From: a virus
Taxonomy: Duplodnaviria > Heunggongvirae > Uroviricota > Caudoviricetes
Direction: 5' to 3' (one strand)
DNA: 64,000 nucleotides
IMG/VR virus record: IMGVR_UViG_3300028486_000080
Span: 16,199-80,198 of that record
A model generated the notes under the pieces. It made no database searches and was not told the DNA's origin. It saw only the letters and a list, made by a program, of their open reading frames with translations. Positions 3,729 through 63,555 of the stretch are shown one piece after another (within the stretch, counting starts at the first letter, position 1; the number at the start of each line of letters is the position of its first letter). The translations under genes were made by a program, and so were the position numbers.

Positions 3729-3995
3729 TCAGGACTGACGATGCTCATGTACCTTAGTCACCTTGAGTCCGTCAAGCCCGAACTTCGCGAGGGACATTTC
3801 CCAATATTTCAGTTCGGCTTCGGTCCAGCGGTAGGTCTTCAGAGCCCACTCACGCGTAATTAGCTTGCCGTGGATAGCAGCGATTACTTCTGCTTTTCTA
3901 CGGGCGGTCCACCGCGAGGTATTCGCTGGGGGTAGGCTATCGACCGTGATCTGACCGGTTGGTCCTAGAGCATACTTCGGGCGATGTGCTGCCAT
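3729..3995 (-). CDS. sciP: SciP / DUF1153 family CtrA-inhibitor homolog
   Basis: YALGPTGQITVDSLPPANTSRWTARRKAEVIAAIHGKLIT...W...GLDGLKVT matches the SciP pattern GP.G....DLPP..T.RW..RRKAEVVAAV.GGL; GGAGG RBS before ATG 3995. Confidence 0.88.
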   Translation of the reverse strand: MAAHRPKYALGPTGQITVDSLPPANTSRWTARRKAEVIAAIHGKLITREWALKTYRWTEAELKYWEMSLAKFGLDGLKVTKVHEHRQS

Positions 3996-4073
3996 GTGTT
4001 TTACCTCCATGGGGTTGCTGGAGGTCTTACTAGCATCGTTAATACTAATCAGCAAGGGAAATTTTCGGTAAGG

Positions 4074-4646
4074 TTAACTTGTCTGTGCAGCGCGTAGCAG
4101 CATAGCCTTAAGAACTTCCGCAGCAGCTAATGTATCCGCGAAGGCGTCATGGGCATCCTCGATCTTCTTACGAAGAAATGTGTAGTATGCACCACTCAAA
4201 CGCACAGGGCGGTTGAGCATAACTTCAGCCCGTTTCATGATGCACATAGTTTGCGTGTTGTCGGGGAAGATCGGGCGCTGACTATAGTCCTCAGGATCAA
4301 TACGCATAGAGGTTTGACGCATCACCTTCTCATCAAAGGCTAGGTTATACGCGGTAATAAGGTCAGCTTCCTCACATAACTCACGAAACTCCGCTAGAAC
4401 TTCCTTGATCGGGCGCCCCTCAGCTTGGCATAGGGCTGGAGTAATACCATGTACCTCTACAGCTTTCTCATGAAACGGGGCACCTCGGGGCACCTTAACC
4501 AGGGTATTCACGGTCTTAATTATCTCGAAGTTATCCCCGAGCATGACCACACCAAGCTGCACCGGCCACGGCTGCACAATCGATAGCGGGTCTTCACCCT
4601 GAACTGGTAGACCGGTGGTTTCAGTATCGAATACGAGAACCTTCAT
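4074..4646 (-). CDS. DEDDh 3'-5' exonuclease, DNA polymerase III epsilon-like
   Basis: VFDTETTG, AYNLAFD, HDAFADT motifs. Confidence 0.9.
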   Translation of the reverse strand: MKVLVFDTETTGLPVQGEDPLSIVQPWPVQLGVVMLGDNFEIIKTVNTLVKVPRGAPFHEKAVEVHGITPALCQAEGRPIKEVLAEFRELCEEADLITAYNLAFDEKVMRQTSMRIDPEDYSQRPIFPDNTQTMCIMKRAEVMLNRPVRLSGAYYTFLRKKIEDAHDAFADTLAAAEVLKAMLLRAAQTS

Positions 4647-4662
4647 AACGAGTAACCTTGAG

Positions 4663-4709
4663 TTAACCTACAATGTTAACCATACTACTACAAAAGCGCT
4701 TGCTGTCAA
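4663..4709 (-). promoter_or_regulatory. sigma70-like promoter TTGACA-N16-TAGTAT with a downstream TTAA-N9-TTAA
   Basis: Read directly: -35 at 4704-4709, -10 at 4682-4687, TTAA at 4663 and 4676. Confidence 0.55.
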
Positions 4710-4734
4710 GCACTAAATTAACTACTCTTAAGGG

Positions 4735-5049
4735 ATGGATGATAGAACCAAGAAGCTCATGGCCATTCTCGCAGAGAACGGCTACACGCACGTCCGTCAG
4801 CTGCCCACAGGAGAGTGGGCGGCGATCCTGAAGTTCATCTTCACGTATGGATTGTGTGTGGGCTTGGATGAATATGGGTTGCGTACGCGCTTTTGCTACG
4901 GAACCGAGATCGAAGCCGTAGCCGCGCTGCATGAGTGGGATGGTAAGGGCTTCCCACCGGGTTGGTGGCTGCGTCAGAAACCCGAGGATATCAATAATCC
5001 GCTAAGAGAAGAGCTAAACGCTTCACTCGAAGAGCCTCACGACCTTTAG
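4735..5049 (+). CDS. hypothetical phage protein
   Basis: 104 aa ORF with plausible composition, divergent from the exonuclease. Confidence 0.65.
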   Translation: MDDRTKKLMAILAENGYTHVRQLPTGEWAAILKFIFTYGLCVGLDEYGLRTRFCYGTEIEAVAALHEWDGKGFPPGWWLRQKPEDINNPLREELNASLEEPHDL

Positions 5050-5446
5050 CGGCGCAGGCGTTCTTGTCCTTGATGTTGCGCCCACAAAATGTAGGCGTTA
5101 ACATGTGGCAGTTAGGGCAGATGGCTTCTAGGTTATTGCGCTTGTTGTTCTCGCGGTCACCATCGATGTGATCCACAGTGAGAGGCATGGGCTGCCCCAT
5201 CCACTCGTTCAGGTTACAGTGTGCACAATACCCATCTTGCTCTTCGATAATGCGCCGACGCAGAGTTTTCCAAGTCATCTGCTCGGTATCAGCCGCATGA
5301 CGCTTTGCTCGCGCCTTTGCTCTAGAAGCTTCGATGGAGCGCATACGACGATCTAGGCGCTGGCATTTAGCCGAGCACACCACACTCGTCTTCTCTCTGT
5401 CTTTTCTAGGGGTGTATTCTGATCCACACTGACGGCATATAGTCAT
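4991..5446 (-). CDS. HNH endonuclease with N-terminal Zn-finger
   Basis: CRQC...CSAKC; CAHC..LTVDHIDGDRENNKRNNLEAICPNCH. Confidence 0.85.
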   Translation of the reverse strand: MTICRQCGSEYTPRKDREKTSVVCSAKCQRLDRRMRSIEASRAKARAKRHAADTEQMTWKTLRRRIIEEQDGYCAHCNLNEWMGQPMPLTVDHIDGDRENNKRNNLEAICPNCHMLTPTFCGRNIKDKNACAAKGREALRVKRLALLLADY

Positions 5447-5586
5447 GGTAGAGTCCAGCCCTTCGGAGCCTCACTCCAGCGAAGCAGTTTAGACCACCAC
5501 ACCTCATCAACATGCACGGTTGGTCCTTGGACGATCTTGAAGCTGTTCGGCGGCATGTCAGGATCGAGGACGACCTTCATGCCCAT
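5443..5586 (-). CDS. small hypothetical protein
   Basis: Fills the gap between the TusA-like and HNH genes; stop overlaps the HNH start. Confidence 0.4.
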   Translation of the reverse strand: MGMKVVLDPDMPPNSFKIVQGPTVHVDEVWWSKLLRWSEAPKGWTLP

Positions 5587-5596
5587 GTAGGTTAGC

Positions 5597-17038: not shown

Positions 17039-17245
17039 TTACCTTAATTCGTTGAGCCGTGCAACAAGAAAAACTTCCGCATCCTCTAAAAGCGCGTGGG
17101 CGCGTACCTCATTGCGCACGCCCTTGATCGGAGTAAACTCACGACGCGCCATGCGGACGCTGTTCAGCACCGCTGCGAGGAGGACAGCGCGCTCAGCGCG
17201 ATCCTGCTCTTCTTCGTGCTCATAACATGAGTCATAGTGTCCCAT
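17039..17245 (-). CDS. hypothetical protein
   Basis: Start MGHYDSCYE overlaps the RtcB stop. Confidence 0.55.
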   Translation of the reverse strand: MGHYDSCYEHEEEQDRAERAVLLAAVLNSVRMARREFTPIKGVRNEVRAHALLEDAEVFLVARLNELR

Positions 17246-18626
17246 TGTCAACCTTCTTCTTGTTGCGCCATGGCTCATAGTAAGCTCCCGCCATGATGCA
17301 CCCATACGGCTGCACTATGTCGATCACCGCGCACAACCCATACTTGTCGATCTGCGCGCGCACCTTGTTGGCGTCCTTGTACGCCCCAGGAAGTTCTGAC
17401 GCATCGGGACGCCCAGAGTAGAAGCGCACGTCCAATCCCTGGGTCTGCTGCGCCATCATCTGTTCCAAAGTCAGATGCGCGTTCTCCCGCATGTAATGCG
17501 TGCGCGAGTAGTTGCGCCCTGCCCCATGAGGAGAGAAGCCTAGCCCGTTAGGGGCGTCCAGCCCGCGCGTGATTAGGATCGGCTGAGCCATGTTGAGTGG
17601 GATCAATGTCAGACCGATGTCGTCGGCAGAGAACCCACGGAATGCTGGCGTCGCTCCCTTAGCGTGGAAGAAATGACCATCACGCTCGAAGACAAAGTTG
17701 TGCTCGTTCCAGAAGCGCCCAACAACTGGCGCCTTCACGAACGTCGCTACCGCTTCATGGATGGCGTAGTGGTTCTCCTTGGTCCACAGGCGCACAGCCT
17801 GGAGCGCACGCCAATACTCTTCACCCTCTTCGGTGCTGATATCGAGCCACGCGTTGTGGGGGGCCACCTCGGACGTGAGAGTCTTCGTGTAGCGCTGTGC
17901 CGCGCGCAAGCCGTCCTTGTAGAGCGCTGCTCCAGGACCACGAGAGCCGTGATGCGTGACGATAGCTGTCTCGCCCGTGGACGCCAACGTGCCCACGTAG
18001 AAGAAGTGGTTGCCGTCCCCTTGGGTACCGAAGAAGTCCTGCGCGATACGCACCAGCGGCTTGAGGAAGTTGTTGGAGGCAAACTCATCCATGACAAAAT
18101 ACGGAGGCGTCCACTGGTCACCACGTGGACGCCCACCAGGACCGAAGTGCGTGATCTTCGAACCAGCATCCAGCACATCCTTAGGCTCCACGCCCCGGAT
18201 GATAGAGATCGCCATAGAGCAACACACGTCAGCGGAGTGCATGCCAGGGTGGATCGCCTTTGACTTGACAACGCCGCCAACAGGGATCGTCCCTAGCTGA
18301 GCACCAGCCGGGCAAGCGTCAGGCATCACGGCGCCTGCTTCGACAACCGGGATGCGCATGATCTCGCGCATGTGCTGAGATACAGCCACACGGTTAGCCA
18401 CTTCGGCGTCGTTATCCGCATCTAGATTGACATGGAAGTCACGCCCCTCGGTAAGGGGCAACGACTGGACCGGCTTGGGAGCAAGACGCTGCACCATACC
18501 ACGGATGTCCTCTTCTGAGGCGCCGTAATTAGCTGCGTGTTGTGCCGTCTTGATCGCTTCCTTGAACCACGATCCTGGAGGAAATCCCCAATTGATCAGC
18601 GTCTGTCCCGTTATCTCGTTCATCAT
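17232..18626 (-). CDS. rtcB: RtcB family RNA ligase
   Basis: MPDAC, SADVCCSM, GTQGDGNHF, HHGSRG, NEHN, HAKGATP, PHGAGR, ELPGAYKD. Confidence 0.92.
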   Translation of the reverse strand: MMNEITGQTLINWGFPPGSWFKEAIKTAQHAANYGASEEDIRGMVQRLAPKPVQSLPLTEGRDFHVNLDADNDAEVANRVAVSQHMREIMRIPVVEAGAVMPDACPAGAQLGTIPVGGVVKSKAIHPGMHSADVCCSMAISIIRGVEPKDVLDAGSKITHFGPGGRPRGDQWTPPYFVMDEFASNNFLKPLVRIAQDFFGTQGDGNHFFYVGTLASTGETAIVTHHGSRGPGAALYKDGLRAAQRYTKTLTSEVAPHNAWLDISTEEGEEYWRALQAVRLWTKENHYAIHEAVATFVKAPVVGRFWNEHNFVFERDGHFFHAKGATPAFRGFSADDIGLTLIPLNMAQPILITRGLDAPNGLGFSPHGAGRNYSRTHYMRENAHLTLEQMMAQQTQGLDVRFYSGRPDASELPGAYKDANKVRAQIDKYGLCAVIDIVQPYGCIMAGAYYEPWRNKKKVDNGTL

Positions 18627-23676: not shown

Positions 23677-25155
23677 CTATACGCCGGATTGCTTGATGAT
23701 CAGTTCGATGTCGAGAGACACGAGTTCGAAGAAGTCATTGGGGCGCGGAGAGTTGGAGATCGCACGCGCCGTGAAGCCGTCGTCCTGATTATAGAAGCGA
23801 TCCTTGATCATCTTCATATATTTCTTCGTGATGTAGTCGGACAACATAGTGTCGTAGAACTCGACCGGATTCTCGCGCCACACCAGCTTACCGCGGTCCA
23901 GCTTCATCAGGTGATGCACCGGATAAAGGAGCGGCAGAATATACGCAGGGAGCGCACCCTTGATGGTCTCGTGCATCGGCTCCTGGAAGTAGTAAGTGCG
24001 GAACGGATGATTGGGAAGAGCCTCAGTGTATCCTGTCGCTGAGCGCGCATATTTCCCGCTCTTGCGATACATCTGAGTGAACTCCTTCACGAGCCAATCG
24101 TGGAGGCGCATAATGTCGGGAACGAGCGCCAACGCCGACAAGAACCCCTTATCGGTGGAGGCAGAAAACACGTCGTCTCCCGACGACGGGGAGCATGCCA
24201 CCTTGACGGCGCGGAACGCCTTCTGCACTCCAGCCTTGGAGTTATAGAAGTTGATGCCGGGAGTAACCATTTCCCCGCGATCAAGGCGCGGGATTCCACG
24301 GTTCACGTAGAGTCCATAGAGTGCGACCATAGCGAGCGTGATAACCTCACGCACCTTGATCTCGTCCTTGATCTCCGCTTCATCCGGCTTCCAGTTGATG
24401 CGAGCGTTGATGCTCGGGGGGAGGGCGTTACGCAGATCGTCGTAGACGCCATCATAAGTGTTGATGGCGGTGACAGTCTGCTCCGAACCAGCGTTGCGTG
24501 CGACGATCACGTCAAGAATCTGCCGCTTCGGAGCTTCAGCCGAGTTCTTCGGATAGATGAACTCTACGTTGACTGATCCCTGAAGTTTGGGGAGAAACTT
24601 CTGAATGGCTGCCGCATACTTCTCTTCGAACGCACGCAGACGGCTGGGATGACGGATGCGCTCGACAGACTTGCGGTCGGGGTTCTCCTCGGGGATCACG
24701 CAGGAGAGAACCTGCTTGCGAATAGCAAATGATGTGTGCCCGCCATCGACGATACCATGCAGCGACGGATCGTCCGCCGTCACGGCAATCTTCGTGTTGC
24801 CTGCAAGAAGCGCGGCGCGGGAAACTGACGCAAGGAGCCCCTTGTTGCGGAACACCATCTTCTCAGGATTATTGGACAGCGTGTCGCGAATCTGCTTGAC
24901 GACGGCGTTTTCCTTGGCGCCGCGCGGATTGCCGCCAGTGCCGAGAGGGAAGAGGTAGGGGTAGATGTGCTTTATCGGAACGTCAGCGCAAATTGCTGAG
25001 CCGAGTTCTTTGTCGTCGGTCTTGATCGACGGGCGTGCCTTAAGGTCAAGAGTGAACGTCACCGGATTGTCCGCGTCATAATGGAACACCGTCTCGACGG
25101 TAGGTTCCTCGACGGTTTCGGCTTCTTCTACGCGGTCTTTAAGCTTTACAGCCAT
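23677..25155 (-). CDS. AIPR-family (ParB/DndB-like nuclease fold) protein
   Basis: FRNKGLL, IVDGGHT and ARNAG correspond to the AIPR NNG, IVNGGQT and N motifs; GGAG RBS. Confidence 0.65.
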   Translation of the reverse strand: MAVKLKDRVEEAETVEEPTVETVFHYDADNPVTFTLDLKARPSIKTDDKELGSAICADVPIKHIYPYLFPLGTGGNPRGAKENAVVKQIRDTLSNNPEKMVFRNKGLLASVSRAALLAGNTKIAVTADDPSLHGIVDGGHTSFAIRKQVLSCVIPEENPDRKSVERIRHPSRLRAFEEKYAAAIQKFLPKLQGSVNVEFIYPKNSAEAPKRQILDVIVARNAGSEQTVTAINTYDGVYDDLRNALPPSINARINWKPDEAEIKDEIKVREVITLAMVALYGLYVNRGIPRLDRGEMVTPGINFYNSKAGVQKAFRAVKVACSPSSGDDVFSASTDKGFLSALALVPDIMRLHDWLVKEFTQMYRKSGKYARSATGYTEALPNHPFRTYYFQEPMHETIKGALPAYILPLLYPVHHLMKLDRGKLVWRENPVEFYDTMLSDYITKKYMKMIKDRFYNQDDGFTARAISNSPRPNDFFELVSLDIELIIKQSGV

Positions 25156-25227: not shown

Positions 25228-25749
25228 TCAATAGATTGGAATCGATTCCATCAAAGTGACTTGGCTCGGGCGGGGCTCCGAAATTTTGTTGAACAGTTTT
25301 CTGGAGAGCCGGGCACCTTTGCCAAGCACGCCCATCTTCTGAAGTGTGATCACCGTCTTCGCTGATATTTCATAGACATGCAAGACCGGAAAGGCGGACG
25401 TGTCAACGATTAGGAAGCTCGTCAGGTTGCGTGCCCACTTGCGGAAATCGCTCTGATCAAAATGCCGTCCCGATCCCGTCTGCACTGACGGGAGTAGGCT
25501 GACGCTACTGCCGTGCATGCAACGAATTTCATAGCGCTCCCCGGTCTCTGGATTATACACATCAAAGCGTTCATTGGACTTCAGCGCCATTTTTAGACGC
25601 AGGCGGCTGGCAACAGAGTTCTCAACGATTTTGGTTGCGCCGCTACCTGTCATGAATGAAGCCCGTAGAGCGGCAACGCTGATACCGAACCCGCGTGCTA
25701 GAGAAGCTTCAGGATACATAAAGCTGGTGATGTGTTCGATGGTATCCAT
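25228..25749 (-). CDS. putative restriction-like endonuclease
   Basis: FDVYNPETGERYEIRC resembles a PD-(D/E)xK core (D..ExR); directly downstream of an MTase. Confidence 0.45.
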   Translation of the reverse strand: MDTIEHITSFMYPEASLARGFGISVAALRASFMTGSGATKIVENSVASRLRLKMALKSNERFDVYNPETGERYEIRCMHGSSVSLLPSVQTGSGRHFDQSDFRKWARNLTSFLIVDTSAFPVLHVYEISAKTVITLQKMGVLGKGARLSRKLFNKISEPRPSQVTLMESIPIY

Positions 25750-25760
25750 AATAAGTAACC

Positions 25761-26807: not shown

Positions 26808-26846
26808 GGTGTTAACCTTAACACGCTGTGGGGATTATGGTCAAGG

Positions 26847-27650: not shown

Positions 27651-27661
27651 CACTATCTCCA

Positions 27662-27712: not shown

Positions 27713-27745
27713 CTAAATTCTTAACGGAGTTATGTTAACGTTAAC

Positions 27746-45929: not shown

Positions 45930-46260
45930 CGCATTTGAATTGATTTTTGAGAAAATAAACGAAAATAGAAAAATAAATGAAAAATGTGTTTAGCACACAA
46001 GCAACACATATGCGCGCCCCCACATACACAACATATTAGGGTTAACAATTAGTGTACACATACACACTCATACACACTCACACATTCACTACATGTTAAC
46101 GTTAATAGATATGGTAAACGATTAACCTTAACAGTGTGTGTATGTGTAACACTGTGTTAACCATATGTGTTAACCTTACTAGATACTAACACTGTGTACC
46201 ATAGTGGCACACATACACACATTAACCCCTCGTATACCATAGCCTACCTTTTTTCTATTC
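45930..46260. repeat. AT-rich non-coding region with A-tracts, ACAC/GTGT repeats and TTAAC motifs
   Basis: GAAAAATAAACGAAAATAGAAAAATAAATG; CACATACACAC copies and an inverted GTGTGTATGTG; no credible ORF. Confidence 0.7.
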
Positions 46261-46293
46261 TTCATTCTTTGTTTACACCTTGAGGCGCATAGT
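46261..46293 (+). promoter_or_regulatory. cassette promoter: degenerate CtrA box plus CACCTTGAGGCG-CATAGT
   Basis: TTCA-N7-TTTA; near-identical to 47163 and 48686. Confidence 0.6.
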
Positions 46294-47019: not shown

Positions 47020-47162
47020 GCGGCGCCAAGCGGCGGGACTCTGTATCCCGCCGCGACGCGTCGCAAGAATCCGGTGTCGATTACTCGATTGATCACCCTT
47101 CGGGGCATAGGACTCAAAAAACTGGCGGCAAGCCAAAAATAAATGTGCACGCCTTCTAGATC

Positions 47163-47195
47163 GTAACCTTTTGTTAAGACCTTGGGGCGCATATT
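47163..47195 (+). promoter_or_regulatory. cassette promoter GTAA-N7-TTAA-N12-CATATT
   Basis: Read directly. Confidence 0.6.
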
Positions 47196-48630: not shown

Positions 48631-48685
48631 CCCGAAATTTACCATGATCCAAGTTGGCGATTTTTTCGCTTGGCGGCGATTTTTG

Positions 48686-48718
48686 TTTACCTCTCGTTAA
48701 GACCTTGAGGCGCATAGT
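48686..48718 (+). promoter_or_regulatory. cassette promoter TTTA-N7-TTAA-GACCTTGAGGCG-CATAGT
   Basis: Read directly. Confidence 0.65.
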
Positions 48719-50225: not shown

Positions 50226-50282
50226 CAGGTAAGGTGCCCGGTGTAACAGCCGGGCATCATTGTGGCTTGTTTTTTGGTATGG

Positions 50283-50534
50283 TTAATTTCGCTACGTGAT
50301 TCTGTTAACCTTAATGTGAACACCTATCAGCGTTAACCTTAATCGTTAACCTTAACGTGAACACCTATCAGCGTTAACCTTAATTCTTAACCTTAATAGT
50401 CAGCTTTGTTAACCTTAATTCTTAACGTTAATGCGCGATTCATGGTAAATCTGGCGTTAACGTTAATTGTTAACCTTAACGGCTGTTAACCTTAACGATT
50501 ATGGTTAACGTAGTATGGTTAACGAGCCGTTAAC
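50283..50534. repeat. dense TTAAC array: 24 TTAA, 8x TTAACCTTAA, one exact 28-bp direct repeat, one canonical CtrA box at 50519-50534
   Basis: Counted in sequence; non-coding. Confidence 0.9.
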
Positions 50535-50555
50535 CTAAATGAAAATTAGTGTTAG

Positions 50556-50675
50556 GAAAACCTCACGAGCCCAAAGCCAGATCGCGATTCGAAAAGCTCG
50601 CGAGCCCATGGGTGCTCCCGAGTGTGAAAAAGCTCACGAGCCCATGGACAGATTCGATTCTGGAAAAGCCTCAGG
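50556..50675. repeat. iteron-like repeats GAAAA(G/C)CTC(A/G)CGAGCCCA at 35-nt period
   Basis: Copies at 50556, 50591, 50626 and a degenerate copy at 50663. Confidence 0.75.
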
Positions 50676-51164
50676 TGGTCGATTATGCTTGCGTAGATTG
50701 TCGATGGCTGGAATCACTCTCAGGTTCCACGGTACGTGAAGCCCACACCGATCTTTACCTTGCAACGGCTCGATATGGTCAACATGGTGAGCGACACCCG
50801 TCTCTTGTTCCTTGACTCTCGCCTCCAGATACTTGGCGGCAATCTCGTCCACCATGGCGTCGTTCTCAGAGCACCATACAGGAAAAGCGTTAATAAATCG
50901 TGCACGCTTCTTAGCGTTGCGCGCTCGTGATCGCCCGATATTTTTTCGGTAGTAATCTCTGTTGTTGTCCCGGCGTCTCTCTCGATGCGTGAGGGCATAA
51001 AGGCGCCCGCGCGCTAGGTAGCGCTCTCGATTTTTCTTCTGCCACGCCTTGGTGCGTTCATTGCGGCATGGCTTGCATTCCCCGGCGAGTCCGTCACGGT
51101 ATCGCGGGTCTTTGCAGTAGTCTGTTAACTCTTTTTCCTCTGAGCACTTCGAACAGCGTTTCAT
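50634..51164 (-). CDS. HNH endonuclease with N-terminal Zn-finger
   Basis: KRCSKC...ECKPC; HHVDHIEPLQG..CGLHVPWNLRVI...NLRKHN; own promoter TTGACA-N17-TACACT at 51171-51199. Confidence 0.9.
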   Translation of the reverse strand: MKRCSKCSEEKELTDYCKDPRYRDGLAGECKPCRNERTKAWQKKNRERYLARGRLYALTHRERRRDNNRDYYRKNIGRSRARNAKKRARFINAFPVWCSENDAMVDEIAAKYLEARVKEQETGVAHHVDHIEPLQGKDRCGLHVPWNLRVIPAIDNLRKHNRPPEAFPESNLSMGS

Positions 51165-51298
51165 GAACGCAGTGTATCAATATTAACCTTAAATGTCAAC
51201 TGTGATATATTTGTTGTGATAATATTGTCACAGATGCTCGTTGACTTAAAAGTCAATTTAAGATTCGGACAACCTCCCCCTTAGTTAAAATTTCTGGC

Positions 51299-51384
51299 GG
51301 GTCCACATACCCCCCTAGGAAAAAATCCGGCAATGGGTCCACCCGCCCTATCTCTAATTTTGGGGAAGGGTCCACCCGCCCTAT
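51299..51384. repeat. three GGGTCCAC repeats, two extended to GGGTCCACCCGCCCTAT
   Basis: Copies at 51299, 51335, 51368. Confidence 0.7.
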
Positions 51385-51394
51385 TCTCAAATAG

Positions 51395-51628
51395 TTAACG
51401 GCTCCCCTCGATCTTTTCCATGAGTGCCCTCAGCATCGCTTCATAGGGGAAGTTGCCCACCTTTTCCACCCGGCGAAAAGTGCTAAGGCTCATACCCAGC
51501 GCCTCAGCGGCAGCCGGTTGACTCAAATTGAGGCGGGTCCGCCAATCCTTAACATCGATACCGAGGGTCGATGCGAATTGGGGCACCAGATCGCCATAGT
51601 CGCCCGTACGGGTCACATCGTTGGTCAT
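51395..51628 (-). CDS. XRE-family HTH regulator
   Basis: VKDWRTRLNLSQPAAAEALGMSLSTFRRVE. Confidence 0.75.
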   Translation of the reverse strand: MTNDVTRTGDYGDLVPQFASTLGIDVKDWRTRLNLSQPAAAEALGMSLSTFRRVEKVGNFPYEAMLRALMEKIEGSR

Positions 51629-51631
51629 GGA

Positions 51632-51784
51632 GTCAAAACTGTTCAAATTGGACAGGGGGGTAGTCAAATTGACTGTAGTCAATTTGAAGGGGTAGTCAAA
51701 TTGGATACCCCTCAAAACTGTTCAAATTGAACAGTTTTGCGCCTGTTAACGTTAATCTTTAAGCCTAATGTGTTCAAATTGACT
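51632..51784. promoter_or_regulatory. six TCAA(A/T)TTG pseudo-palindromes upstream of the XRE gene, putative operators
   Basis: Includes AAAACTGTTCAA-A-TTGAACAGTTTT at about 51715-51739. Confidence 0.6.
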
Positions 51785-52283
51785 ACCCCCCGACGCTCGA
51801 CGGGCGATTTGTGACCATTTTCGGGGCGTTTGTGTCCACTGAATGGTCACACGACTTCCGAGGGGTGTAGGGCGGCAAAAACCCAGCATTTCTCGGCTCT
51901 TGATGGCTTCTTTACCTTACTATTCTTACTTAATATAACTATATGATTAATGTAACCAGTTTTGGGAAGTCCTTAGCCCATTGCAAACGAATCTTAAGCA
52001 TAAAAGTTAACGTTAACGTTCGTGCTGTTTGCGCCCATCCGTGCTCCAGTGTGCTGCTGTAGCCCGTGATATGCCTTTTGAGGAGTCACAATAGACCTGT
52101 AGTTTCTTTCGACGTAAGCCTTTGATATCGCCCAATGTTTTTGTGCCCATTTTTCGGGGGCAATGGACACACTCCCGACACAAGAGTATTGCAATTAACG
52201 ATAATATCCTGTAGTATCTCAGAGTCGAAAGGCGTGAAACGCCCAACGATCAACGATCAACCCTCAACTCTCAGGACACCACC

Positions 52284-52766: not shown

Positions 52767-54113
52767 GGATTTTCCCGCCGCCGCGCGTTGTATTCTTGAA
52801 TGCGTGCGAGCCCGAACAGTCGCCGCATTTCATCCACCGGCAGACCACGGCGCCGCGCCCCACCACGCACGGCTGAATCCTCGATAACAGTCTCTAGCCA
52901 ATCGGTCACCGGCTTGAGGCGTTCCGCTTTGTTGCTCATGCGCAGTAAGCTATGGGCATCCCGTAACAGCGAAATATTAGGCACCGGCAGCGCGGGCAAC
53001 GGCTCCAATTGCTTGACGCGTCCGCGTTTAGGTTTCACCGATTCGGACATTACCGCTTACCCTTGTTCCTCGACATTCATAATTCCAGGTCCAGGTTTGT
53101 GCGTGGCGTGCGTCACCATGGCGTAGTCAGCAGGCGAGAACATGACGACGACTTGCGCGCCCTTTATCGCGTTATCCATAACGTAATGCATCGCGGGCAT
53201 CATGTCCTCGAAAGGACCGACGATGCCCTGCATATTCGGCAGCACCACCACATACTGAGTAACCATTACGCCTCCACTTCACCCTCTTGGCGGCGCTTGA
53301 TCACCGCGGGCGCTAGCGGGTCCAGCGGACTATCGCTAGCCTCGATTGCGCGCTCCCGCAGCGTAGCCTCCAGCCCCTCAGGAGTCTTTGCCTTAGGAAA
53401 CGTGCTCGGCAGTCCAGGCACACACGTTATGCCCCATTTCTTTGCGAGGCTCCCACCGATCTTGCGCATGGCTTCAGCCTTGCCACGCAAGTCGGCAGCC
53501 ACGAGCTTGGTGCCCATGCTTGCCATGTCGTCGGCTTGCTCGTCGTAGAGTCCCGCCTTAGTAGCGATAAGCGATACCGTCATGTCCTGCGCCGCGCGCA
53601 TGACTTCACGTTTTGACATTGAGTGCTCCCTTAATCATTCGTTGGCGCAACAGCTTCACCGGCACGCCCGCGTTCCTTGCAGCATCCCTTATAAACTTCT
53701 CGGACGCCATAGCCTCCAGCCAATCAGCAACATAGTTAGCGTCCGCCACTACCATGTCGCCTTCTGGCGATCCGTCAGTTTCATAAGCCCGCAACCATTC
53801 GGCAGCAAAGCGCAGCGCATCAGGGGGCGGTTGCTTAGGTATGCTCATATTCTGCCTCCATACGGTCCAAGTATGCCTTGTCTGCCGCCTCTTCGGCGCG
53901 AAGCTCTTCATCGGTCGGATACCGAGGAACCCAACCGTCCAGCCACGCGCACGGGCGGTTAGCCGACAGAACACGATTCTGCGGCAGCGGCAGCCTCAAC
54001 AGAAGCTCCGTCGCCACAGTGTGATAGTAGTCACTCCAGGCGCCCATACCAGCCTTGCGCGCCTCTTTAGAGGCTTCAAGATAGGCATCTTCGGGGGTGT
54101 ATTCGGTGCACAT
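52763..54113 (-). CDS. operon of five hypothetical genes: 53835-54113, 53606-53848, 53266-53619, 53057-53266, 52763-53050
   Basis: Coupled ORFs behind the cassette promoter at 54160; 52763 and 53606 look paralogous. Confidence 0.6.
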
Positions 54114-54159
54114 AGGTTCGACTCCTATAATGGCGCGCATTGCGCCGAACTCTCAGGAA

Positions 54160-54190
54160 CCCTAGCACCAAAGTCTTAAGAAACCGTTAA
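54160..54190 (-). promoter_or_regulatory. CtrA-box promoter TTAA-CGGTTTC-TTAA-N7-GTGCTAGGG
   Basis: Read directly. Confidence 0.75.
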
Positions 54191-55398
54191 GGTACCAATA
54201 TAATCGGACCAACGATCTTCAGGCACACACAATTGTCGATCCACACCGGGCGCCCTTCGATCAGCAAATCCCACGCACTCTTGTGAAGCGTTAATGTTAA
54301 CTGTTTCTCTAGATCAGCGACGGTCGTATCCCAGGTCTCTTCAACGTCGAAATTGTGCCGTGAGTATCTGTTAACCCTAATAGGGATTGAACCCTCACCT
54401 ACGGTCATTTTTCCAGTTTCCTCAACAGTCGGGCGCGCGGCGGACCACTTCAGTTTCTTTCATCGATCCTCTCTCCACAGAAAGCGCACCGCCCGCGCAC
54501 AACGATGCACACGTGGTCCGTCAATACATATGACCGATAGAGGGTCATCGGTTGTCAAAATCCTTTTGATACACGAGCTTTTTACAGTGCTCACAATAGA
54601 TTGTCACCGTGCCGTAAGCACCGCCACCATGCCCACACGTCGGGCAACCTTCAGAGCTTGACGCCTCGACTTCTATCATCGTTTCGGTCCAGGGCTTTGC
54701 ACAGAAGACACACAGCGGCGGCTTCACCCACCCGTTTGGATTGTCGCTCAATAGTAGTGCCTCCGAGAATCATCCACACGCACGATCTCACCATCAGCGG
54801 TGTAGTCGATGCCACACTTGGCGCCGCTCAGGCTATTGGTCATGTCCTGCGGCGTCAAATAGCGAAATCCCTTGTAGGCTTCGCGGTCCATCAGCGCCGT
54901 CTCGATCAGCGACGCCACGCCCCGGCGCGCGTCCTCATCGCGATCAGCCGAGTGCAGGATGTAGCTATTCGCCCAATTGCGCAGCTTCTCAAGCTCCACA
55001 GTCTTGCGTGCCTTAGCCATGACGTGCCCTCCGTTGCTCAAGATAGCCGACGATCATCTTGTTGCGCTTAGCCAGAGCCTCGCACATGAAACGCTGATAG
55101 GTGCGCGCGTTCCCCAGCCACCACGGGTCCAGCGGTCCCGTTGCAGCCTCGTTCGCTTTGCGTGCCCAGAGCGCTGCCATGCGCTTGGCGTGAAGACTTG
55201 CTTTTGCTCGCGTCATTCGAGCACCATCCAGCCAATCACGGGGGACACGTTCAGGCGCGCAACAAGCGCCTCGTATTCATCCGCCGTGATATGGTTGCCA
55301 AGCTCACGAGACTTGTTCATGGCTCCCTCAAGCGCAACGCGAATCATGTTGGTCTCGACAAGGCTGAAATTCTGGTAAGGCGCGCGATAGATTTGCAT
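54187..55398 (-). CDS. operon of small hypothetical genes: 55213-55398, 55013-55216, 54748-55020, 54545-54751 (CxxC Zn-binding), 54187-54408
   Basis: Coupled ORFs; the first has the GGAGTCGAAC leader. Confidence 0.55.
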
Positions 55399-55432
55399 GT
55401 TCGACTCCTTTGTGTTCTCTCGACTTCAAGCA

Positions 55433-55463
55433 CCCTAGCACGAATGTACTAACGAACCGTTAA
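55433..55463 (-). promoter_or_regulatory. CtrA-box promoter TTAA-CGGTTCG-TTAG-N7-GTGCTAGGG
   Basis: Read directly. Confidence 0.75.
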
Positions 55464-55947: not shown

Positions 55948-56006
55948 TGGCATCACCGCACGGTACCTTGCGGCGTCCCGAGCCGATCAAGCTCAGGCAC
56001 GAACAA

Positions 56007-56036
56007 CCTAGCACTGAGATATTAAAAAAGCGTTAC
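56007..56036 (-). promoter_or_regulatory. CtrA-box promoter GTAA-CGCTTTT-TTAA-N7-GTGCTAGG upstream of the tRNA-like element
   Basis: Read directly. Confidence 0.65.
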
Positions 56037-59139: not shown

Positions 59140-59172
59140 GTTTCGACTCCATGTTTCCTCGACTTTGGACAG

Positions 59173-59202
59173 CCTACCACAGAGGTACTAACAACCCGTT
59201 AA
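59173..59202 (-). promoter_or_regulatory. CtrA-box promoter TTAA-CGGGTTG-TTAG-N7-GTGGTAGG
   Basis: Read directly. Confidence 0.65.
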
Positions 59203-60363: not shown

Positions 60364-60576
60364 TTCGACTCCTTGATGTGGTGGAACGAGTGAGTCTTGA
60401 CCTCACACTGACGGCACGGTCGGGCGCGGTATGATCCTCCCCTTAGGTGCCGTTGCTCTGCCAATATTAAGCTACCGTCCCTTAACCATTGAAATCTATT
60501 GTGACGGGCGCTCTTATTCAGCGGTCGGGAAGCTCCGTCCCTTAGGCCGTTTGGGTCTCGCCCGTCACTTCACACA

Positions 60577-60607
60577 ACCTAGCACACAGAAGTTAACAAA
60601 CCGTTAA
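60577..60607 (-). promoter_or_regulatory. CtrA-box promoter TTAA-CGGTTTG-TTAA-N7-GTGCTAGG
   Basis: Read directly. Confidence 0.75.
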
Positions 60608-60830: not shown

Positions 60831-61442
60831 CTACACAGTCTCCACTTTCTTGAGCCCGTTGGGTCCGAAGTCCGTGCGCAGCCCGGCGCGCACTTCCTTT
60901 GCCATGCGCACCCATCCGAGCGCACCGAGCAACGTCTGCGAGCGTCCGCCGTGCATGCCGTCATGCCACGACTGCCAACCGGCAACCGAATACTGGCGGT
61001 CAGGCTCGTGATAGATCACGTGAGTCAGCCCATCCGTGCCGATCAAATCCATCGGCATGTAGTCATCAGCACCAGGGGGGCGGAAGTATGACGTGACGCG
61101 CAATCCGAGCGAGTCCACCACCTCACTGATGTAGGCGGGAGTCGGGTCAACCTTGGTGCCAGCGGGGACACACATGTAGTAATCCAGCGAGTCCACAAAC
61201 TCACTGCCGAAAATGAATCGCAACGCCTCTCGCGTCGCGGGGATGCGCTCAGACTGGTGCGGACTGTAACCGCCAATCAGCGAGTCAACCACCGTGCTCG
61301 CTTCGATATACTTGATGCGTCCAGCGACGTTGATGCAGGCGCCGCGATTGTAGGTGCCGCGCACCTGAATGCGACCGATCTCCTGCCCCGCGCGATTGAC
61401 GATGATATGCGTCGGCTTTTTGATCAGATAAGGATTGGGCAT
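60831..61442 (-). CDS. hypothetical protein
   Basis: AGGAGTCGAACATG leader. Confidence 0.65.
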   Translation of the reverse strand: MPNPYLIKKPTHIIVNRAGQEIGRIQVRGTYNRGACINVAGRIKYIEASTVVDSLIGGYSPHQSERIPATREALRFIFGSEFVDSLDYYMCVPAGTKVDPTPAYISEVVDSLGLRVTSYFRPPGADDYMPMDLIGTDGLTHVIYHEPDRQYSVAGWQSWHDGMHGGRSQTLLGALGWVRMAKEVRAGLRTDFGPNGLKKVETV

Positions 61443-61472
61443 GTTCGACTCCTTTTGTTCTCGACTACGCAC

Positions 61473-61504
61473 ACCCTAGCACGCATGTCTTAACAAACAG
61501 TTAC
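61473..61504 (-). promoter_or_regulatory. CtrA-box promoter GTAA-CTGTTTG-TTAA-N7-GTGCTAGGG
   Basis: Read directly; back-to-back with the plus-strand TTGACA-N17-TAGTGT promoter at 61515-61543. Confidence 0.7.
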
Positions 61505-61819: not shown

Positions 61820-61939
61820 CCCTAACGCGTAATTAACCCTAGAGTGGTTAACAAAAAGTAAAAGGGCGCCTCATATCGAGGCGCCCCTTTCTTGATGTCG
61901 AATCTTATATCAGATCGACGTTTTGATGCCGATTCTATA

Positions 61940-62923
61940 TCAAGCCGCCTGAAGCAGCTTGACCGCCTTAGCCTTCATCACGGCGCCCGATCCAAATTGA
62001 GCGGATGCGAGGCGGGCATCGTCCGCCGTCTCACCATCAGCGGTGCGGCGTGCCGTGCGGTCATGATCGACGTAGCGCGTCACGGCGTTAAGCGCCGTCC
62101 AAGCGTTGTAGGTCTCAGTGCCGCGCTCAGTGAGAGTCGTATCGAGTGAGCCGGTGATACGATCCACTACAGCCTTGCCACGTCCGGTGACTTCCTTACC
62201 CTCTTGCCCGATGTCAACAACCTTTTTCAGGAAGTTGATAGTTTCGTCGCGCGTCATCTTGATATTGCGCAGCGACTCCGCAAACTCGCGGTAGCCGTCG
62301 AAGTCCGCCGCGATCTTTGCCATAGCGGCAAGCGCCTTGTCCTGCGCCACCAGATCGAAAGCGGCGTTGTGCTTGATCGATACCACGCCCTGCTCAAAGG
62401 CGGCGCCCTGAAGCGTGTTGCGGCACTCGACGCGCGTTCCTACAGCACCGCCGCGCGTTGCCAGCGTGCCGTCGAATGACGTAGCGAGTAGGGCATAAAG
62501 CTTGTGCTTCGAACCGGCGATATCGGACTCTTCACCGCCGTTGAACGCGGCTAGCGCCCAGATCACGCGACCACCCTTGATGGCGCCCATCGTTTCCATG
62601 ACGAAACGCGGGTCCGACAGGATGAAGTTGTGGAAGAACTCGCGAATCTGCGCGGGCTGTACCGGGATATAGTCGTCAGTGAAGAGCCCTAGGCGAGCGT
62701 TGTTGTCGTCGCGCACGATGGCGACAGAGTTGTGAAGTTGGATCATGTTGTTGCCGCGCTGAATAAACAGCGGGCACTTGGAAACGGTGAAATCGGTCTT
62801 CGACGCCTTAGCCCACTCATCCAGCGAGGAGTCGGCGGTCACACTCGTATTTTCGCGGCGATGCCACGAGGGGGCGGCAGTGTCGCGGCGTGCCATCGAG
62901 TCAGCTACGTTATCCCAAGCCAT
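61940..62923 (-). CDS. DUF932 family phage/plasmid-like protein (TIGR03299-like)
   Basis: SWHRR..DFTV..LGLFTDDYIPVQ..ETMGAIKGGRVIWALA..LLATSFDGT..RVECRNTL..IKH..AWTALNAVTRYVDH. Confidence 0.8.
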   Translation of the reverse strand: MAWDNVADSMARRDTAAPSWHRRENTSVTADSSLDEWAKASKTDFTVSKCPLFIQRGNNMIQLHNSVAIVRDDNNARLGLFTDDYIPVQPAQIREFFHNFILSDPRFVMETMGAIKGGRVIWALAAFNGGEESDIAGSKHKLYALLATSFDGTLATRGGAVGTRVECRNTLQGAAFEQGVVSIKHNAAFDLVAQDKALAAMAKIAADFDGYREFAESLRNIKMTRDETINFLKKVVDIGQEGKEVTGRGKAVVDRITGSLDTTLTERGTETYNAWTALNAVTRYVDHDRTARRTADGETADDARLASAQFGSGAVMKAKAVKLLQAA

Positions 62924-62961
62924 TTGTCTGCATGCTCCTATGTTGCTCTTGAATGATTGAA

Positions 62962-62992
62962 CCTTACAGCGAATGTCTTAACAAACCGTTAA
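62962..62992 (-). promoter_or_regulatory. CtrA-box promoter TTAA-CGGTTTG-TTAA-N9-TGTAAGGT
   Basis: Read directly; a further canonical TTAA-N7-TTAAC at 63050-63065. Confidence 0.7.
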
Positions 62993-63166
62993 AAAGGAAG
63001 CTTGTCCATCCCCATTTGTTATCTTTGGGCATGGATTGTAGGCTCATGGTTAATTTTCGGTTAACGCGGGTTAGATACAATTAAGGTTAAGAAGCTCTAA
63101 CTGCTTCCCCGCATTTATCCCCGCAAAATGAAGGCATAATTAAGGTAAACGGTAGCCGCCGCAAGA

Positions 63167-63194
63167 AAAAGCAGGGGAGTCGAAGCCCTGCTTT
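63167..63194 (-). terminator. intrinsic terminator
   Basis: AAAGCAGGG-CTTCGACTC-CCCTGCTTT plus T tract. Confidence 0.6.
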
Positions 63195-63223
63195 CTCTGC
63201 GCGCTGCCTGATATACAGGCGCG

Positions 63224-63493
63224 CTAGTTGGCGAGCGTAACGGAAGCTGAAGTAAACCAATCGCTATCCGGCGCCTCAGGATCACCAGACGGTCCAGGCA
63301 CCCATAACTGGTCATCCTCTCCCCCGTCTCCCTGAAGCACCAGCGAGGTATGAAGCTCGTTGAGCCAGTTGGCGACCACCGTCAGCTTAGTGCCAACCGG
63401 CACGTCACCATGTGCGCCGTTGCTTATCGGTTGAGTGACGATCACCGTGTCACCCTCTTTAAGCGTCTCGGCAAGGTCCATCCAAGTTGACAT
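63224..63493 (-). CDS. hypothetical protein
   Basis: GGAGTCGAAC leader. Confidence 0.6.
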   Translation of the reverse strand: MSTWMDLAETLKEGDTVIVTQPISNGAHGDVPVGTKLTVVANWLNELHTSLVLQGDGGEDDQLWVPGPSGDPEAPDSDWFTSASVTLAN

Positions 63494-63523
63494 TCGTTCG
63501 ACTCCGTTGTTTCCAGTTTCAAC

Positions 63524-63555
63524 ACCCTAGCACAAAGGTACTAACAAACTGTTAA
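63524..63555 (-). promoter_or_regulatory. CtrA-box promoter TTAA-CAGTTTG-TTAG-N7-GTGCTAGGG
   Basis: Read directly. Confidence 0.7.

Follow-up and report, generated by a model that had tools for sequence, protein, structure and literature searches.

A 64,000-nt stretch of phage DNA (the window) encodes a CtrA DNA-binding domain and a SciP homolog and carries many TTAA-containing promoter sites, which raises the question of whether transcription of the phage is wired to the CtrA/SciP circuit of its host and, if so, which protein reads the sites.

Phage genome and promoter organization

The window is part of a complete 165,361-bp genome with direct terminal repeats and an estimated completeness of 100%, encoding a large terminase and replication genes (DNA polymerase A and helicases), and these features settled that it is derived from a phage rather than from a host chromosome. 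The gene content also includes rIIB, seen in the syntenic locus of a 167.7-kb relative (hereafter the relative). The best explanation is a virulent-type 165-kb phage from a loosely knit family whose members (130-165 kb) infect stalked/budding alphaproteobacteria. The full-length CtrAs closest to the phage domain were those of Hyphomonadaceae and Maricaulales-type bacteria (70-75% identity).

The replication and middle genes (1-38 kb of the window) have TTGACA-type promoters, onto which the word TTAACCTTAA is superimposed at varying positions. The promoters of the small-gene block at 46-75 kb in window coordinates are about 15 copies of one cassette containing a CtrA box, and matches to E. coli-type sigma70 promoters in this block were at chance level (14 versus 12.6 expected). 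The features are listed in Table 1.

Table 1. Coordinates of CtrA/SciP-related genes and sites (window positions)
Feature	Position	Strand	Basis
TTAAGGTTAC unit, 2 nt ahead of the rIIA start codon	3650-3659	minus	conserved in relative
SciP1, divergent SciP/DUF1153 homolog, 88 aa	3729-3995	minus	family matches
sciP1 promoter: GTTAACCTTACC, 11 nt, TTGCTG-N17-GCTAGTAA	3996-4085	minus	sequence
TTGACC-N18-TAAGGTTAAC, ending 5 nt before DNA methylase ATG, near-leaderless layout	26813-26844	minus	
Receiver-less CtrA DNA-binding domain gene, 129 aa	27261-27650	minus	NCBIfam CtrA and Pfam Trans_reg_C matches
CtrA-domain gene promoter region: TTAACGTTAAC, TTGACG, GGTTAATCGGTTAACC block, TAATGGAG ribosome-binding site	27651-27790	minus	sequence
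TTGACG promoter, inverted TAACCTTA / TAAGGTTA pair	34479-34509	minus	
TTGACA promoter, inverted TTAACCTTA pair over spacer and -10	35096-35126	minus	
Operator inside sigma70-type promoter, TTGACA-N17-TAAGGTTAA (example)	37923-37953	minus	
Box-family promoter, degenerate box, GGCGCATAGT -10	46260-46291	plus	
Box promoter GTAAC-N6-TTAA, GGCGCATA -10	47162-47193	plus	
Box promoter TTTAC-N6-TTAA, GGCGCATA -10	48685-48716	plus	
Low-GC stretch (0.48), mostly non-coding, short low-scoring ORFs only	50226-52283		
Array, 11 copies of 13-nt unit [C/T]GTTAAC[C/G]TTAA[T/C], ending in one exact TTAA-N7-TTAACC box	50283-50534		
Box promoter TTAACGGTTTCTTAA, 9 nt, GCTAGGGT	54159-54190	minus	
Box promoter TTAAC-N6-TTAG, then GCTAGGGT	55432-55463	minus	
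Box promoter GTAAC-N6-TTAA, then GCTAGGTT	56005-56036	minus	
Box promoter TTAAC-N6-TTAG, then GGTAGGCT	59171-59202	minus	
Box promoter TTAACGGTTTGTTAA, then GCTAGGTT	60576-60607	minus	
Box promoter GTAAC-N6-TTAA, then GCTAGGGT	61473-61504	minus	
Box promoter TTAACGGTTTGTTAA, then TGTAAGGT	62961-62992	minus	
Box promoter TTAAC-N6-TTAG, then GCTAGGGT	63524-63555	minus	

A CtrA domain lacking the receiver

The open reading frame of the CtrA-domain gene spans 27261-27662 on the minus strand, and the ATG at 27650 is the most likely start because the ribosome-binding site there is conserved in the relative. The product matched the NCBIfam CtrA model with 163.8 bits, only at model positions 124-224 of 224 (67 bits for the next-best family), as well as Pfam Trans_reg_C, and the receiver domain is replaced by approximately 25 unrelated residues. 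The initial annotation of a stand-alone CtrA DNA-binding domain was confirmed. The gene is intact and under purifying selection (dN/dS of 0.14 against the relative). The segment from TKEMF to WGRGY is the same as in host CtrAs except for one M-to-I change; host CtrA is matched without any change in the recognition helix, in the alpha2-alpha3 loop before it and at the positions corresponding to T168/T170. Several positions of helix alpha-1 differ, and the C-terminus is TATE in contrast to the Ala-Ala typical of CtrA. In the promoter, the GTTAAC blocks, TTGACGCC and the ribosome-binding site were kept in the relative, while the flanks diverged.

The loss of the receiver domain, which drives dimerization, together with the altered helix alpha-1 could mean that the protein is mainly a dominant-negative competitor filling host and phage boxes without activating them, which would shut off the early cassettes and block host division, motility, pili and origin silencing. 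The conserved TTAAC half-sites that fill the promoter of the gene also suggest feedback. The alpha2-alpha3 loop contacts RNA polymerase in regulators of the OmpR/PhoB type, and isolated DNA-binding domains of the PhoB type are usually constitutive activators. As this loop and the recognition helix are unchanged from host CtrA, a mainly competitive role is regarded as quite unlikely.

Two SciP paralogues

SciP1 is an intact protein that matched DUF1153 with 89 bits (cut-off, 23.5) and the NCBIfam SciP model with 89.6 bits, slightly short of the cut-off of 100. The gene, flanked by an RNase T-type exonuclease gene and rIIA, one on each side in a synteny kept in the relative, is under purifying selection (dN/dS of 0.13 against the relative). 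The motif RW..RRK was invariant in the SciP alignment, with a spacing that fits R35 and R40, the SciP residues required for CtrA binding. GTTAACC, the -35 element and GCTAG of the sciP1 promoter were conserved in the relative, and TTAGATTAAGGTTA before rIIA was perfectly conserved although the rest of the spacer had diverged.

The SciP homolog identified initially held up, but not as the only one of the phage. A second, more canonical SciP (SciP2) is encoded immediately outside the window, with a Tad/TadE-VWA gene downstream. Its promoter consists of TTAA-N7-TTAA followed by GCTAGCCT at the spacing of the box family, and this location behind a canonical CtrA box, like that of host sciP, fits a phage that reads CtrA. 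No publication describing a SciP from a phage was found; DUF1153 gave no tblastn match in 50,697 phage records and has no PHROG family, and a pattern search covering IMG/VR to a limited extent detected 9 loci.

CtrA boxes in place of the -35 element

The window contains six exact copies of TTAA-N7-TTAA (0.39 expected) and the whole genome contains 12 (1.6-1.8 expected). All 12 copies are confined to intergenic DNA of a 26-kb segment (48.5-75 kb in window coordinates). Where about 12 box promoters had been proposed, 11 were counted in the window, eight on the minus strand (54.2-63.6 kb) and three on the plus strand (46.3-48.7 kb, one with a degenerate box), and at least four more were present immediately outside it, giving a total of about 15. 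The cassette has a CtrA box, TTAAC-N6-TTA[A/G], at -38 to -24, followed by a GCTAGGGT-type -10 element, without a -35 hexamer. The TAAC and TTA half-sites were the most conserved columns in the alignment of the 15 promoters, even across sub-families with different -10 elements. Because the promoters derive by duplication from a single cassette, the 5'UTR included, their number is not independent evidence. The size and position of the genes suggest that the cassettes may be early.

The 10-mer in sigma70-type promoters and in an array

A second class of site is TTAACCTTAA, composed of the CtrA/SciP half-site GTTAACC and a second TTAA, with 78 core copies, 64 of them intergenic; TAACCTTA occurs 40 times in the window (0.63 expected). 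The 10-mers are kept as footprints in the relative. Their placement in sigma70-type promoters varies, covering the -10 element, the spacer or the transcription start. The palindromes reported earlier were correctly located, although TTAACCTTAA itself is not palindromic and only the variant TTAACGTTAA is.

The array, for which the reported 24 TTAA were counted, far above chance, includes eight TTAACCTTAA and two TTAACGTTAA. The surrounding low-GC stretch also contains more TTAACGTTAA units, GGGGTAGTCAAATTG iterons and a CTGTTCAAATTGAACAG palindrome, making it a candidate control or origin region.

TAAGGT is located exactly 17-18 nt past TTGACA at nine sites, and TAACC-type -10 positions are recurrent, as would be expected if the TTAAC-rich words were promoter or -10 elements of a phage-specific transcription or sigma factor unrelated to CtrA and SciP. 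However, the units are found in either orientation, their placement with respect to the -35 varies, some stand in arrays that lack a promoter, and pairs of units adopt the exact N7 spacing of CtrA. Targeted scans found no RNA polymerase or sigma factor among ten window proteins and the terminase, and this explanation is extremely improbable.

The ChIP-seq consensus of SciP is (G/A)TTAACCAT(A/G), and the idea of an 'extended CtrA box' has also been put forward (PMC4083442). The GTTAACC start of the 10-mer matches seven of the nine positions of the SciP consensus. Direct binding of SciP to DNA is disputed in the literature.

Co-occurrence of sites and regulators in related phages

A database check of co-occurrence showed that a CtrA domain and SciP are also encoded together in the relative and in G064, a distant 163-kb phage in which their genes are direct neighbours in the same orientation. 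G048 and G068 had SciP only. The complete 79-kb genome G058 contained 23 ten-mers and 13 N7 boxes with neither a CtrA domain nor DUF1153, and the jumbo phages G047 and G049 contained 79 and 61 ten-mers, respectively, also without either gene. Most N7 boxes of G058, G048, G068, G065 and G040 were pairs of the form 10-mer-N7-10-mer. Among 49 viral records with tandem 10-mers, DUF1153 was present in six and a CtrA domain in one.

The higher count of DUF1153 among the tandem-10-mer records and the match to the SciP consensus speak for the possibility that the SciP-like proteins are direct sequence-specific readers of TTAACCTTAA, repressing sigma70-type promoter cores and the array, and that CtrA acts at N7 boxes only. 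Apart from these records, phage data contain very few DUF1153 proteins, and the SciP-bearing relatives G048, G064, G068 and G065 are all motif-rich. In contrast, G058, G047 and G049 are motif-rich without DUF1153, eight other viral or proviral DUF1153 records contain no 10-mer, and the N7 pairing in relatives corresponds to CtrA dimer spacing; given also the dispute over DNA binding, direct reading by SciP is possible but unlikely.

The 13-bp spacing of the units in the array misfits the canonical CtrA dimer. Together with the absence of the dimerizing receiver, this could suggest monomeric binding of the phage CtrA domain to TTAACC half-sites. The domain would then specifically read the TTAACCTTAA operators and the array, the latter serving as a sponge or as a gate for the origin. 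This reading is very unlikely, as 37 other viral records with a CtrA-like domain contained no TTAACCTTAA at all, and 48 of the 49 tandem-10-mer records had no CtrA domain.

Comparison with known systems

Caulobacter has a feed-forward loop in which sciP is switched on by CtrA and its product silences those S-phase promoters that CtrA activates. The phage resembles this loop in the CtrA box ahead of SciP2, in the CtrA-contact motif RW..RRK and in the GTTAACC half-site word common to the phage sites and the SciP consensus. It differs in having two diverged SciPs, no GcrA and a CtrA without a receiver domain or C-terminal degron, which therefore should have no phosphorelay or ClpXP input.

OmpR-type winged-helix proteins with CtrA affinity and no receiver are likewise encoded by Roseobacter phage RDJL Phi 1 (gp37, 'ctrA', 151 aa) and by Xiamenvirus/Rhodobacter phages, but they are only 44-52% identical to the present protein, which shares 70-75% identity with true host CtrA domains. 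RDJL Phi 1-type phages and 36 other CtrA-like viral records had neither DUF1153 nor TTAACCTTAA, unlike this phage.

A 2022 study described CtrA sites in phages and showed that CtrA binds and regulates phage promoters (PMC9437464). The phages of that study likewise have intergenic CtrA boxes concentrated in one genome segment ahead of small uncharacterized genes, together with an extensive non-coding region rich in sites. Here, however, the boxes belong to a promoter cassette duplicated in front of about 15 operons, and TTAACCTTAA overlies ordinary promoters as a second site class. A CtrA DNA-binding domain and two SciPs are also phage-encoded here, and that study describes no phage-encoded CtrA or SciP. 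The same source mentions a GcrA homolog in Caulobacter phage phiCbK, also a phage-borne copy of a host cell-cycle transcription factor, although a different regulator and with no matching cis regulon noted there. The combination of both trans factors and the cis architecture in one phage had been put forward as possibly undescribed. CtrA sites and receiver-less CtrA-like genes in phages were already known separately, and phage SciP is the component for which no paper was found.

Reader of the sites and proposed role of the phage proteins

Neither site class needs a phage-encoded factor, because relatives such as G058 keep both sites without either gene. This points to host CtrA, perhaps together with host SciP, as the likely primary reader, the phage proteins being accessory modulators. 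We lean, with moderate confidence, toward the explanation that transcription of the phage is tied into the CtrA/SciP circuit of the host, with host CtrA~P as the reader and the phage CtrA domain and SciPs in accessory roles. Host CtrA~P would activate the box cassettes, including those of SciP2 and a Tad-pilus tip-pilin gene, and CtrA~P or a CtrA/SciP complex would occupy the TTAACCTTAA operators on sigma70-type promoters. The phage CtrA domain may hold CtrA boxes occupied regardless of the host phosphorelay and ClpXP proteolysis, and the SciPs may damp CtrA-activated transcription of host motility and pilus genes as well as of the phage's own box promoters. The accessory proteins would jointly uncouple the phage programme from the cell-cycle state of the host. 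On this genomic evidence, a timed switch of reading and then overriding CtrA is plausible, and it is probable that the phage reads the host cell cycle and also interferes with it.

Phage origin and gene content

The record carries direct terminal repeats and has a length of 165,361 bp with an estimated completeness of 100%; the window corresponds to its bases 16199-80198. Tailed-phage genes were identified for DNA polymerase A, SF1 and SNF2 helicases, an RNase T-type exonuclease, RtcB and a DNA methylase, and the large terminase gene was located just outside the window. A GHKL-ATPase-fold protein occupies the rIIA position, beside which rIIB is annotated in the syntenic locus of a 167.7-kb relative. 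The putative capsid protein showed 55-60% identity to counterparts in other uncultured large phages. The possibility that the stretch was a piece of host chromosome was excluded because the tailed-phage gene set is present: the terminal repeats, the completeness, the terminase, the rIIB of the relative's locus and DNA polymerase A all identified a phage genome.

When 12 kb of the window was compared by megablast with 50,697 phage records, no near-identical DNA was detected. No tRNA gene was found within the window, and no gene for GcrA is encoded. The DNA methylase gene lies two genes downstream of the gene for the CtrA domain, and a CcrM-specific match was not found for it. The coordinates of the features are listed in the table.

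Positions of genes and sites in window coordinates
Feature	Position	Strand	Remark
SciP1	3729-3995	-	88 aa
RtcB RNA ligase	17232-18626		
AIPR (abortive-infection-type) domain protein	23677-25155		
N6/N4 DNA methylase	25761-26807		
CtrA domain	27261-27662	-	ORF; start at 27650
DUF932 / TIGR03299 'phage/plasmid-like protein'	61940-62923		327 aa
Tad/TadE + VWA pilin-like gene	69020-70369		L219:5020-6369, beyond window; domains confirmed
Plus-strand box promoters	46284, 47186, 48709	+	-10 one nt farther from box
Conserved 5'UTR of box promoters	54096-54165, 55369-55438, 61410-61479, 63461-63530 and others		
TTGACA-N17-TAAGGTTAA promoter	37923-37953		
TAAGGTTA[A/C] near start codons	3646-3659, 25749-25765, 26807-26822		
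ACACA and CATACAC repeats	45950-46250		in 712-bp intergenic region
TTAA-rich array	50283-50534		
AAAAGCTC[A/G]CGAGCCCATGG copies	50557-50653		three, direct, spacing 35-36 nt
GGGGTAGTCAAATTG iterons and CTGTTCAAATTGAACAG palindrome	51629-51800		in 655-bp intergenic region

A CtrA DNA-binding domain without a receiver

The CtrA-domain ORF matched Pfam Trans_reg_C with 71.7 bits and the NCBIfam CtrA model NF045991 with 163.8 bits, the next-best family reaching 67 bits. The match covered model positions 124-224 only, and the full-length cut-off of 350 bits was not reached because the receiver domain is missing. Indeed, no Response_reg match was obtained, and the receiver with its phospho-acceptor Asp51 is replaced by approximately 25 unrelated, acidic and proline-rich residues. 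The initial annotation had described a CtrA DNA-binding domain standing alone, with its start at 27650; both points were borne out, the start by a ribosome-binding site conserved in the 167.7-kb relative. The TTAAC half-sites preceding the gene are also kept in this relative, where the adjacent bases have diverged.

From TKEMF to WGRGY, a span comprising helix alpha-2, the loop preceding the recognition helix, the recognition helix itself and the C-terminal hairpin, the alignment showed a single M-to-I change and otherwise identity to the CtrAs of Hyphobacterium, Marinicauda and Robiginitomaculum. Caulobacter CtrA chooses its promoter class through T168 and T170, and the equivalent residues are retained in the phage domain. 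From the identical recognition helix we infer that the phage domain would bind TTAA-N7-TTAA. The alanine tail at the C-terminus of CtrA is a degron. Several of the aligned host CtrAs end in AA, AAA or VA, whereas the phage domain ends in TATE (AAAE in the 167.7-kb relative), and a ClpXP degradation signal of the Ala-Ala type is not present in it.

Many short CtrA-only proteins in the protein database were considered as a large receiver-less family and rejected, as the three aligned (P0052, P0057 and P0123) begin within receiver-linker sequence and are apparently gene calls that were truncated.

Two SciP homologs

SciP1, annotated at the outset as a SciP homolog, scored 89 bits on Pfam DUF1153 (PF06627), above the cut-off of 23.5, and 89.6 bits on the NCBIfam SciP equivalog NF051866, slightly under the cut-off of 100. 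A second and more canonical SciP (SciP2; 120.4 bits on DUF1153) is encoded approximately 6.6 kb past the window end. The motif RW..RRK (RWTARRK in SciP1, with R28 and R33) was invariant in an alignment of ten phage and bacterial sequences. R35 and R40 of Caulobacter SciP are reported to be critical for contact with CtrA, and SciP1 R28 and R33 would fit these positions when mapped through spacing alone. A predicted complex of the phage CtrA domain (residues 22-129) with SciP1 scored 0.00 against a mark of 0.32, a result that carries no weight either way.

The two paralogues are preceded by different promoters. That of SciP1 is of the sigma70 type with GTTAACC upstream of the -35. In that of SciP2, a canonical CtrA box, TTAACTTTCCTTTAA, takes the -35 position, and GCTAGCCT comes after it at the spacing typical of the family. 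Downstream of SciP2, and behind the same CtrA-box promoter as SciP2, lies the gene for a Tad/TadE + VWA pilin-like protein of 449 aa. The placement of SciP2 behind a CtrA box resembles the host circuit, in which CtrA activates sciP.

Relatives of SciP1 were found neither by tblastn against the 50,697 phage records nor by a single-protein scan of IMG/VR; they surfaced only through a protein cluster search, a motif-first route and a profile scan. No PHROG family was found for DUF1153.

When compared with the 167.7-kb relative, dN/dS was 0.14 for the CtrA domain and 0.13 for SciP1, with dS > 1, indicating that these are maintained genes. Decaying captured fragments were therefore ruled out, as both genes are intact and conserved at this distance.

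Promoters with a CtrA box in place of the -35

The window contains six exact TTAA-N7-TTAA boxes where 0.39 were expected, and the genome 12 where 1.6-1.8 were expected. All 12 fall between genes, in a 26.4-kb segment of the 165-kb genome at 48.5-75 kb. Judged by their confinement to one segment and to intergenic sequence, the boxes resemble those of the phages with low positional entropy of CtrA sites described by Mascolo et al. 2022.

Most of the exact boxes belong to a cassette with the consensus TTAACGGTTTGTTA[A/G], 9 nt, GCTAGGGT, GAAGTCGAG, a short spacer and AGGAGTCGAAC immediately before ATG. The cassette heads at least 12 minus-strand operons, and a variant with GGCGCATAGT as the -10 heads three plus-strand operons. 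In the 12 promoters of the GCTAGGGT type, the box is located at -38 to -24, the place of the -35 hexamer, with GCTAGGGT following 9 nt later. The earlier statement that the box replaces the -35 thus proved correct for these and the three plus-strand promoters, none of which has TTGACA. With a box over the -35 and a Caulobacter-type GCTANAWC -10, they match the CtrA-activated type of promoter; E. coli-type -35/-10 matches in the block were no more frequent than chance.

Alignment of the 15 promoters showed the TAAC and TTA half-sites as invariant or near-invariant columns across two sub-families with different -10 elements, the second half-site being TTAG rather than TTAA in 5/15. The copy number of the cassette is not independent evidence because the whole unit, promoter plus leader including the 5'UTR, has been duplicated many times. 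Unlike copy number, the conservation pattern inside the cassette is independent evidence.

The AGGAGTCGAAC leader is likewise found before plus-strand genes at 46-50 kb. Upstream of the first plus-strand promoter of the box family, the intergenic region rich in ACACA and CATACAC repeats contains TTAACGTTAA, TTAACCTTAA and TTAACCAT units. The largest gene within the box-promoter block encodes the DUF932 protein.

A second class of sites and the TTAA-rich array

The window has 40 copies of the 8-nt core of the 10-mer TTAACCTTAA, where 0.63 would be expected; genome-wide there are 78 copies, of which 64 are intergenic. In the replication block (1-38 kb), TTAACCTTAA overlaps promoters of the TTGACA type at variable places: nine copies can be read as the -10 (TTGACA-N17/18-TAAGGT), and others fall within the spacer or where transcription would start. 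Some of the sites form inverted pairs. Such variable placement is more in keeping with a putative operator than with an element of the promoter. In the 167.7-kb relative, the units ahead of rIIA and sciP1 have been kept amid diverged neighbouring bases.

Three genes (rIIA, one of 173 aa and that of the DNA methylase) have TAAGGTTA[A/C] only 2-6 nt ahead of the start codon. At so short a distance, the mRNAs may be leaderless or near-leaderless, or AAGG may double as a ribosome-binding site.

The array was confirmed to contain 24 TTAA, as initially counted, as well as 8 TTAACCTTAA and 2 TTAACGTTAA, all organised in 11 copies of a 13-nt unit. It is positioned past the terminator of the plus-strand block, where this block meets the 3' end of a minus-strand block. 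The 2-kb stretch bearing the array has few, short and low-scoring ORFs and a GC content of 0.48, the minimum of the window, and also contains the GGGGTAGTCAAATTG iterons and the CTGTTCAAATTGAACAG palindrome. It is a candidate control region, possibly an origin.

The three direct AAAAGCTC[A/G]CGAGCCCATGG copies lie directly past the array. Within the 655-bp intergenic region, the GGGGTAGTCAAATTG iterons are both direct and inverted, and they and the palindrome adjoin TTAACGTTAA units; the region might be an origin of replication or a site for partition.

Distribution of the sites and the genes among viral genomes

An IMG/VR scan for two 10-mers within 14 nt returned at least 118 stretches, and the 10-mer code was present in more than 100 uncultured viral contigs, so that findings on it would have relevance beyond this phage. 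Among 49 motif-bearing records examined, DUF1153 was found in six and a CtrA domain in one, G064 (163 kb, with terminal repeats). In G064, the genes for a 95-aa CtrA domain and a 103-aa SciP-like protein lie approximately 245 bp apart on the same strand. The pair recurs in G064; DUF1153 was absent from 37 other viral records with CtrA-like domains. No copy of TTAACCTTAA was found in these 37 records or in 8 proviral-type records with DUF1153. G064, G048 and G068 are distant relatives, having 28-37 proteins in common with the phage at 25-60% identity.

TTAA-N2-TTAA was the dominant spacing in 9/9 genomes compared, and N7 was also enriched. In G058, G048, G068, G065 and G040, most exact N7 boxes arise between adjacent 10-mers, as in TTAACCTTAA-N7-TTAAGGTTAA, indicating that the 10-mer belongs to the CtrA-box code. 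The complete 79-kb genome G058 has 23 ten-mers and 13 N7 boxes, and ten-mers number 79 in the jumbo phage G047 and 61 in the jumbo phage G049; all three lack both the CtrA domain and DUF1153. Since such motif-rich phages lack both genes, both classes of site can be read by a host factor alone. We conclude that host CtrA is the obvious candidate reader, with the phage-encoded proteins as probable accessories.

A live alternative is that the SciPs themselves read the 10-mer. The SciP ChIP-seq consensus in Caulobacter, (G/A)TTAACCAT(A/G), prompted the proposal that CtrA and SciP jointly occupy an 'extended CtrA box' (PMC4083442). The phage word GTTAACCTTAA has GTTAACC in common with this consensus, and DUF1153 is enriched among motif-rich phages, although phages without SciP are also rich in the motif and direct DNA binding by SciP is disputed. 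The present system could bear on this dispute in the Caulobacter field over whether SciP recognises DNA, CtrA or both.

Other arrangements of these words were seen in the relatives. At 143380-143500 of G064 (loci L186-L187), TTAACCTTAA and TTAAGGTTAA units form an array with a spacing of 7 nt (17-bp period), so that each junction is a canonical CtrA box, and G064 promoters have TTAACCAT approximately 19 nt upstream of a TTGACC -35. In G068 and G080 (loci L199-L205 and L212-L213), 10-mers recur every 500-900 bp over a 20-kb block, in a unit of terminator, TTAA-N7-TTAAGGTTAAC, 16-17 nt, GTTAACCA and a small gene. These units are a distinct promoter design made from the same words.

Discussion

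The sequence observations of the initial annotation (CtrA domain, SciP, box promoters, array and phage context) were confirmed. Its interpretation, a takeover of the host CtrA circuit by the phage, was supported in part, as to the trans factors and the site classes; the phage proteins are better seen as probable accessories, as G058, G047 and G049 keep the sites without them.

CtrA controls replication, division, motility and pilus synthesis in many alphaproteobacteria, and pili and flagella are receptors for many of their phages. From the genes and sites observed, we infer a mechanism in which host CtrA~P would activate the box cassettes, those of SciP2 and the pilin-like gene included, while the TTAACCTTAA operators on sigma70-type promoters would be occupied by CtrA or a CtrA/SciP complex. 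The phage CtrA domain, predicted to be beyond the reach of host dephosphorylation and the usual degradation signals, would hold the boxes at any stage of the cell cycle, and the SciPs would dampen CtrA-activated transcription of host and phage genes. As to the action of the CtrA domain, the identical loop before the recognition helix would favour activation, and the missing dimerising receiver domain would favour competition.

Clustered CtrA sites in phage genomes and the regulation of phage promoters by CtrA were published in 2022 (PMC9437464). Host CtrA has been shown to be required by phage Jorvik. Roseobacter phage RDJL Phi 1 and its relatives have annotated receiver-less CtrA-like genes, that of RDJL Phi 1 encoding 151 aa with 49% identity over the matched 89 residues. 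No relevant paper on a phage-encoded SciP, DUF1153 or CtrA was found in the literature covered, subscription journals lying outside it. New here are SciP paralogues in a phage, the repeated occurrence of SciP together with a receiver-less CtrA, and a two-class cis code common to a group of large phages.

Published phages listen to CtrA. The present genome also equips its phage to answer, with the CtrA inhibitor in two copies and a CtrA domain that, from its sequence, neither dephosphorylation nor proteolysis is predicted to switch off, and it has a clear promoter code on which they could act. These three small proteins and three types of site (the N7 box promoter, the TTAACCTTAA operator and the array) could reveal how a virus rewires a bacterial cell-cycle circuit. 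A bolder reading, which we hold only tentatively and consider rather doubtful, is suggested by the adjacency of the same pair in the distant phage G064: the CtrA domain and SciP may form a portable kinase-free switch that runs the early-to-middle transition of the phage on the CtrA-box code and simultaneously denies the host control of its cell cycle and the making of pili and flagella. Were this true, a whole family of large phages would, beyond sensing the host, use a copied host master-regulator circuit as an internal timer.
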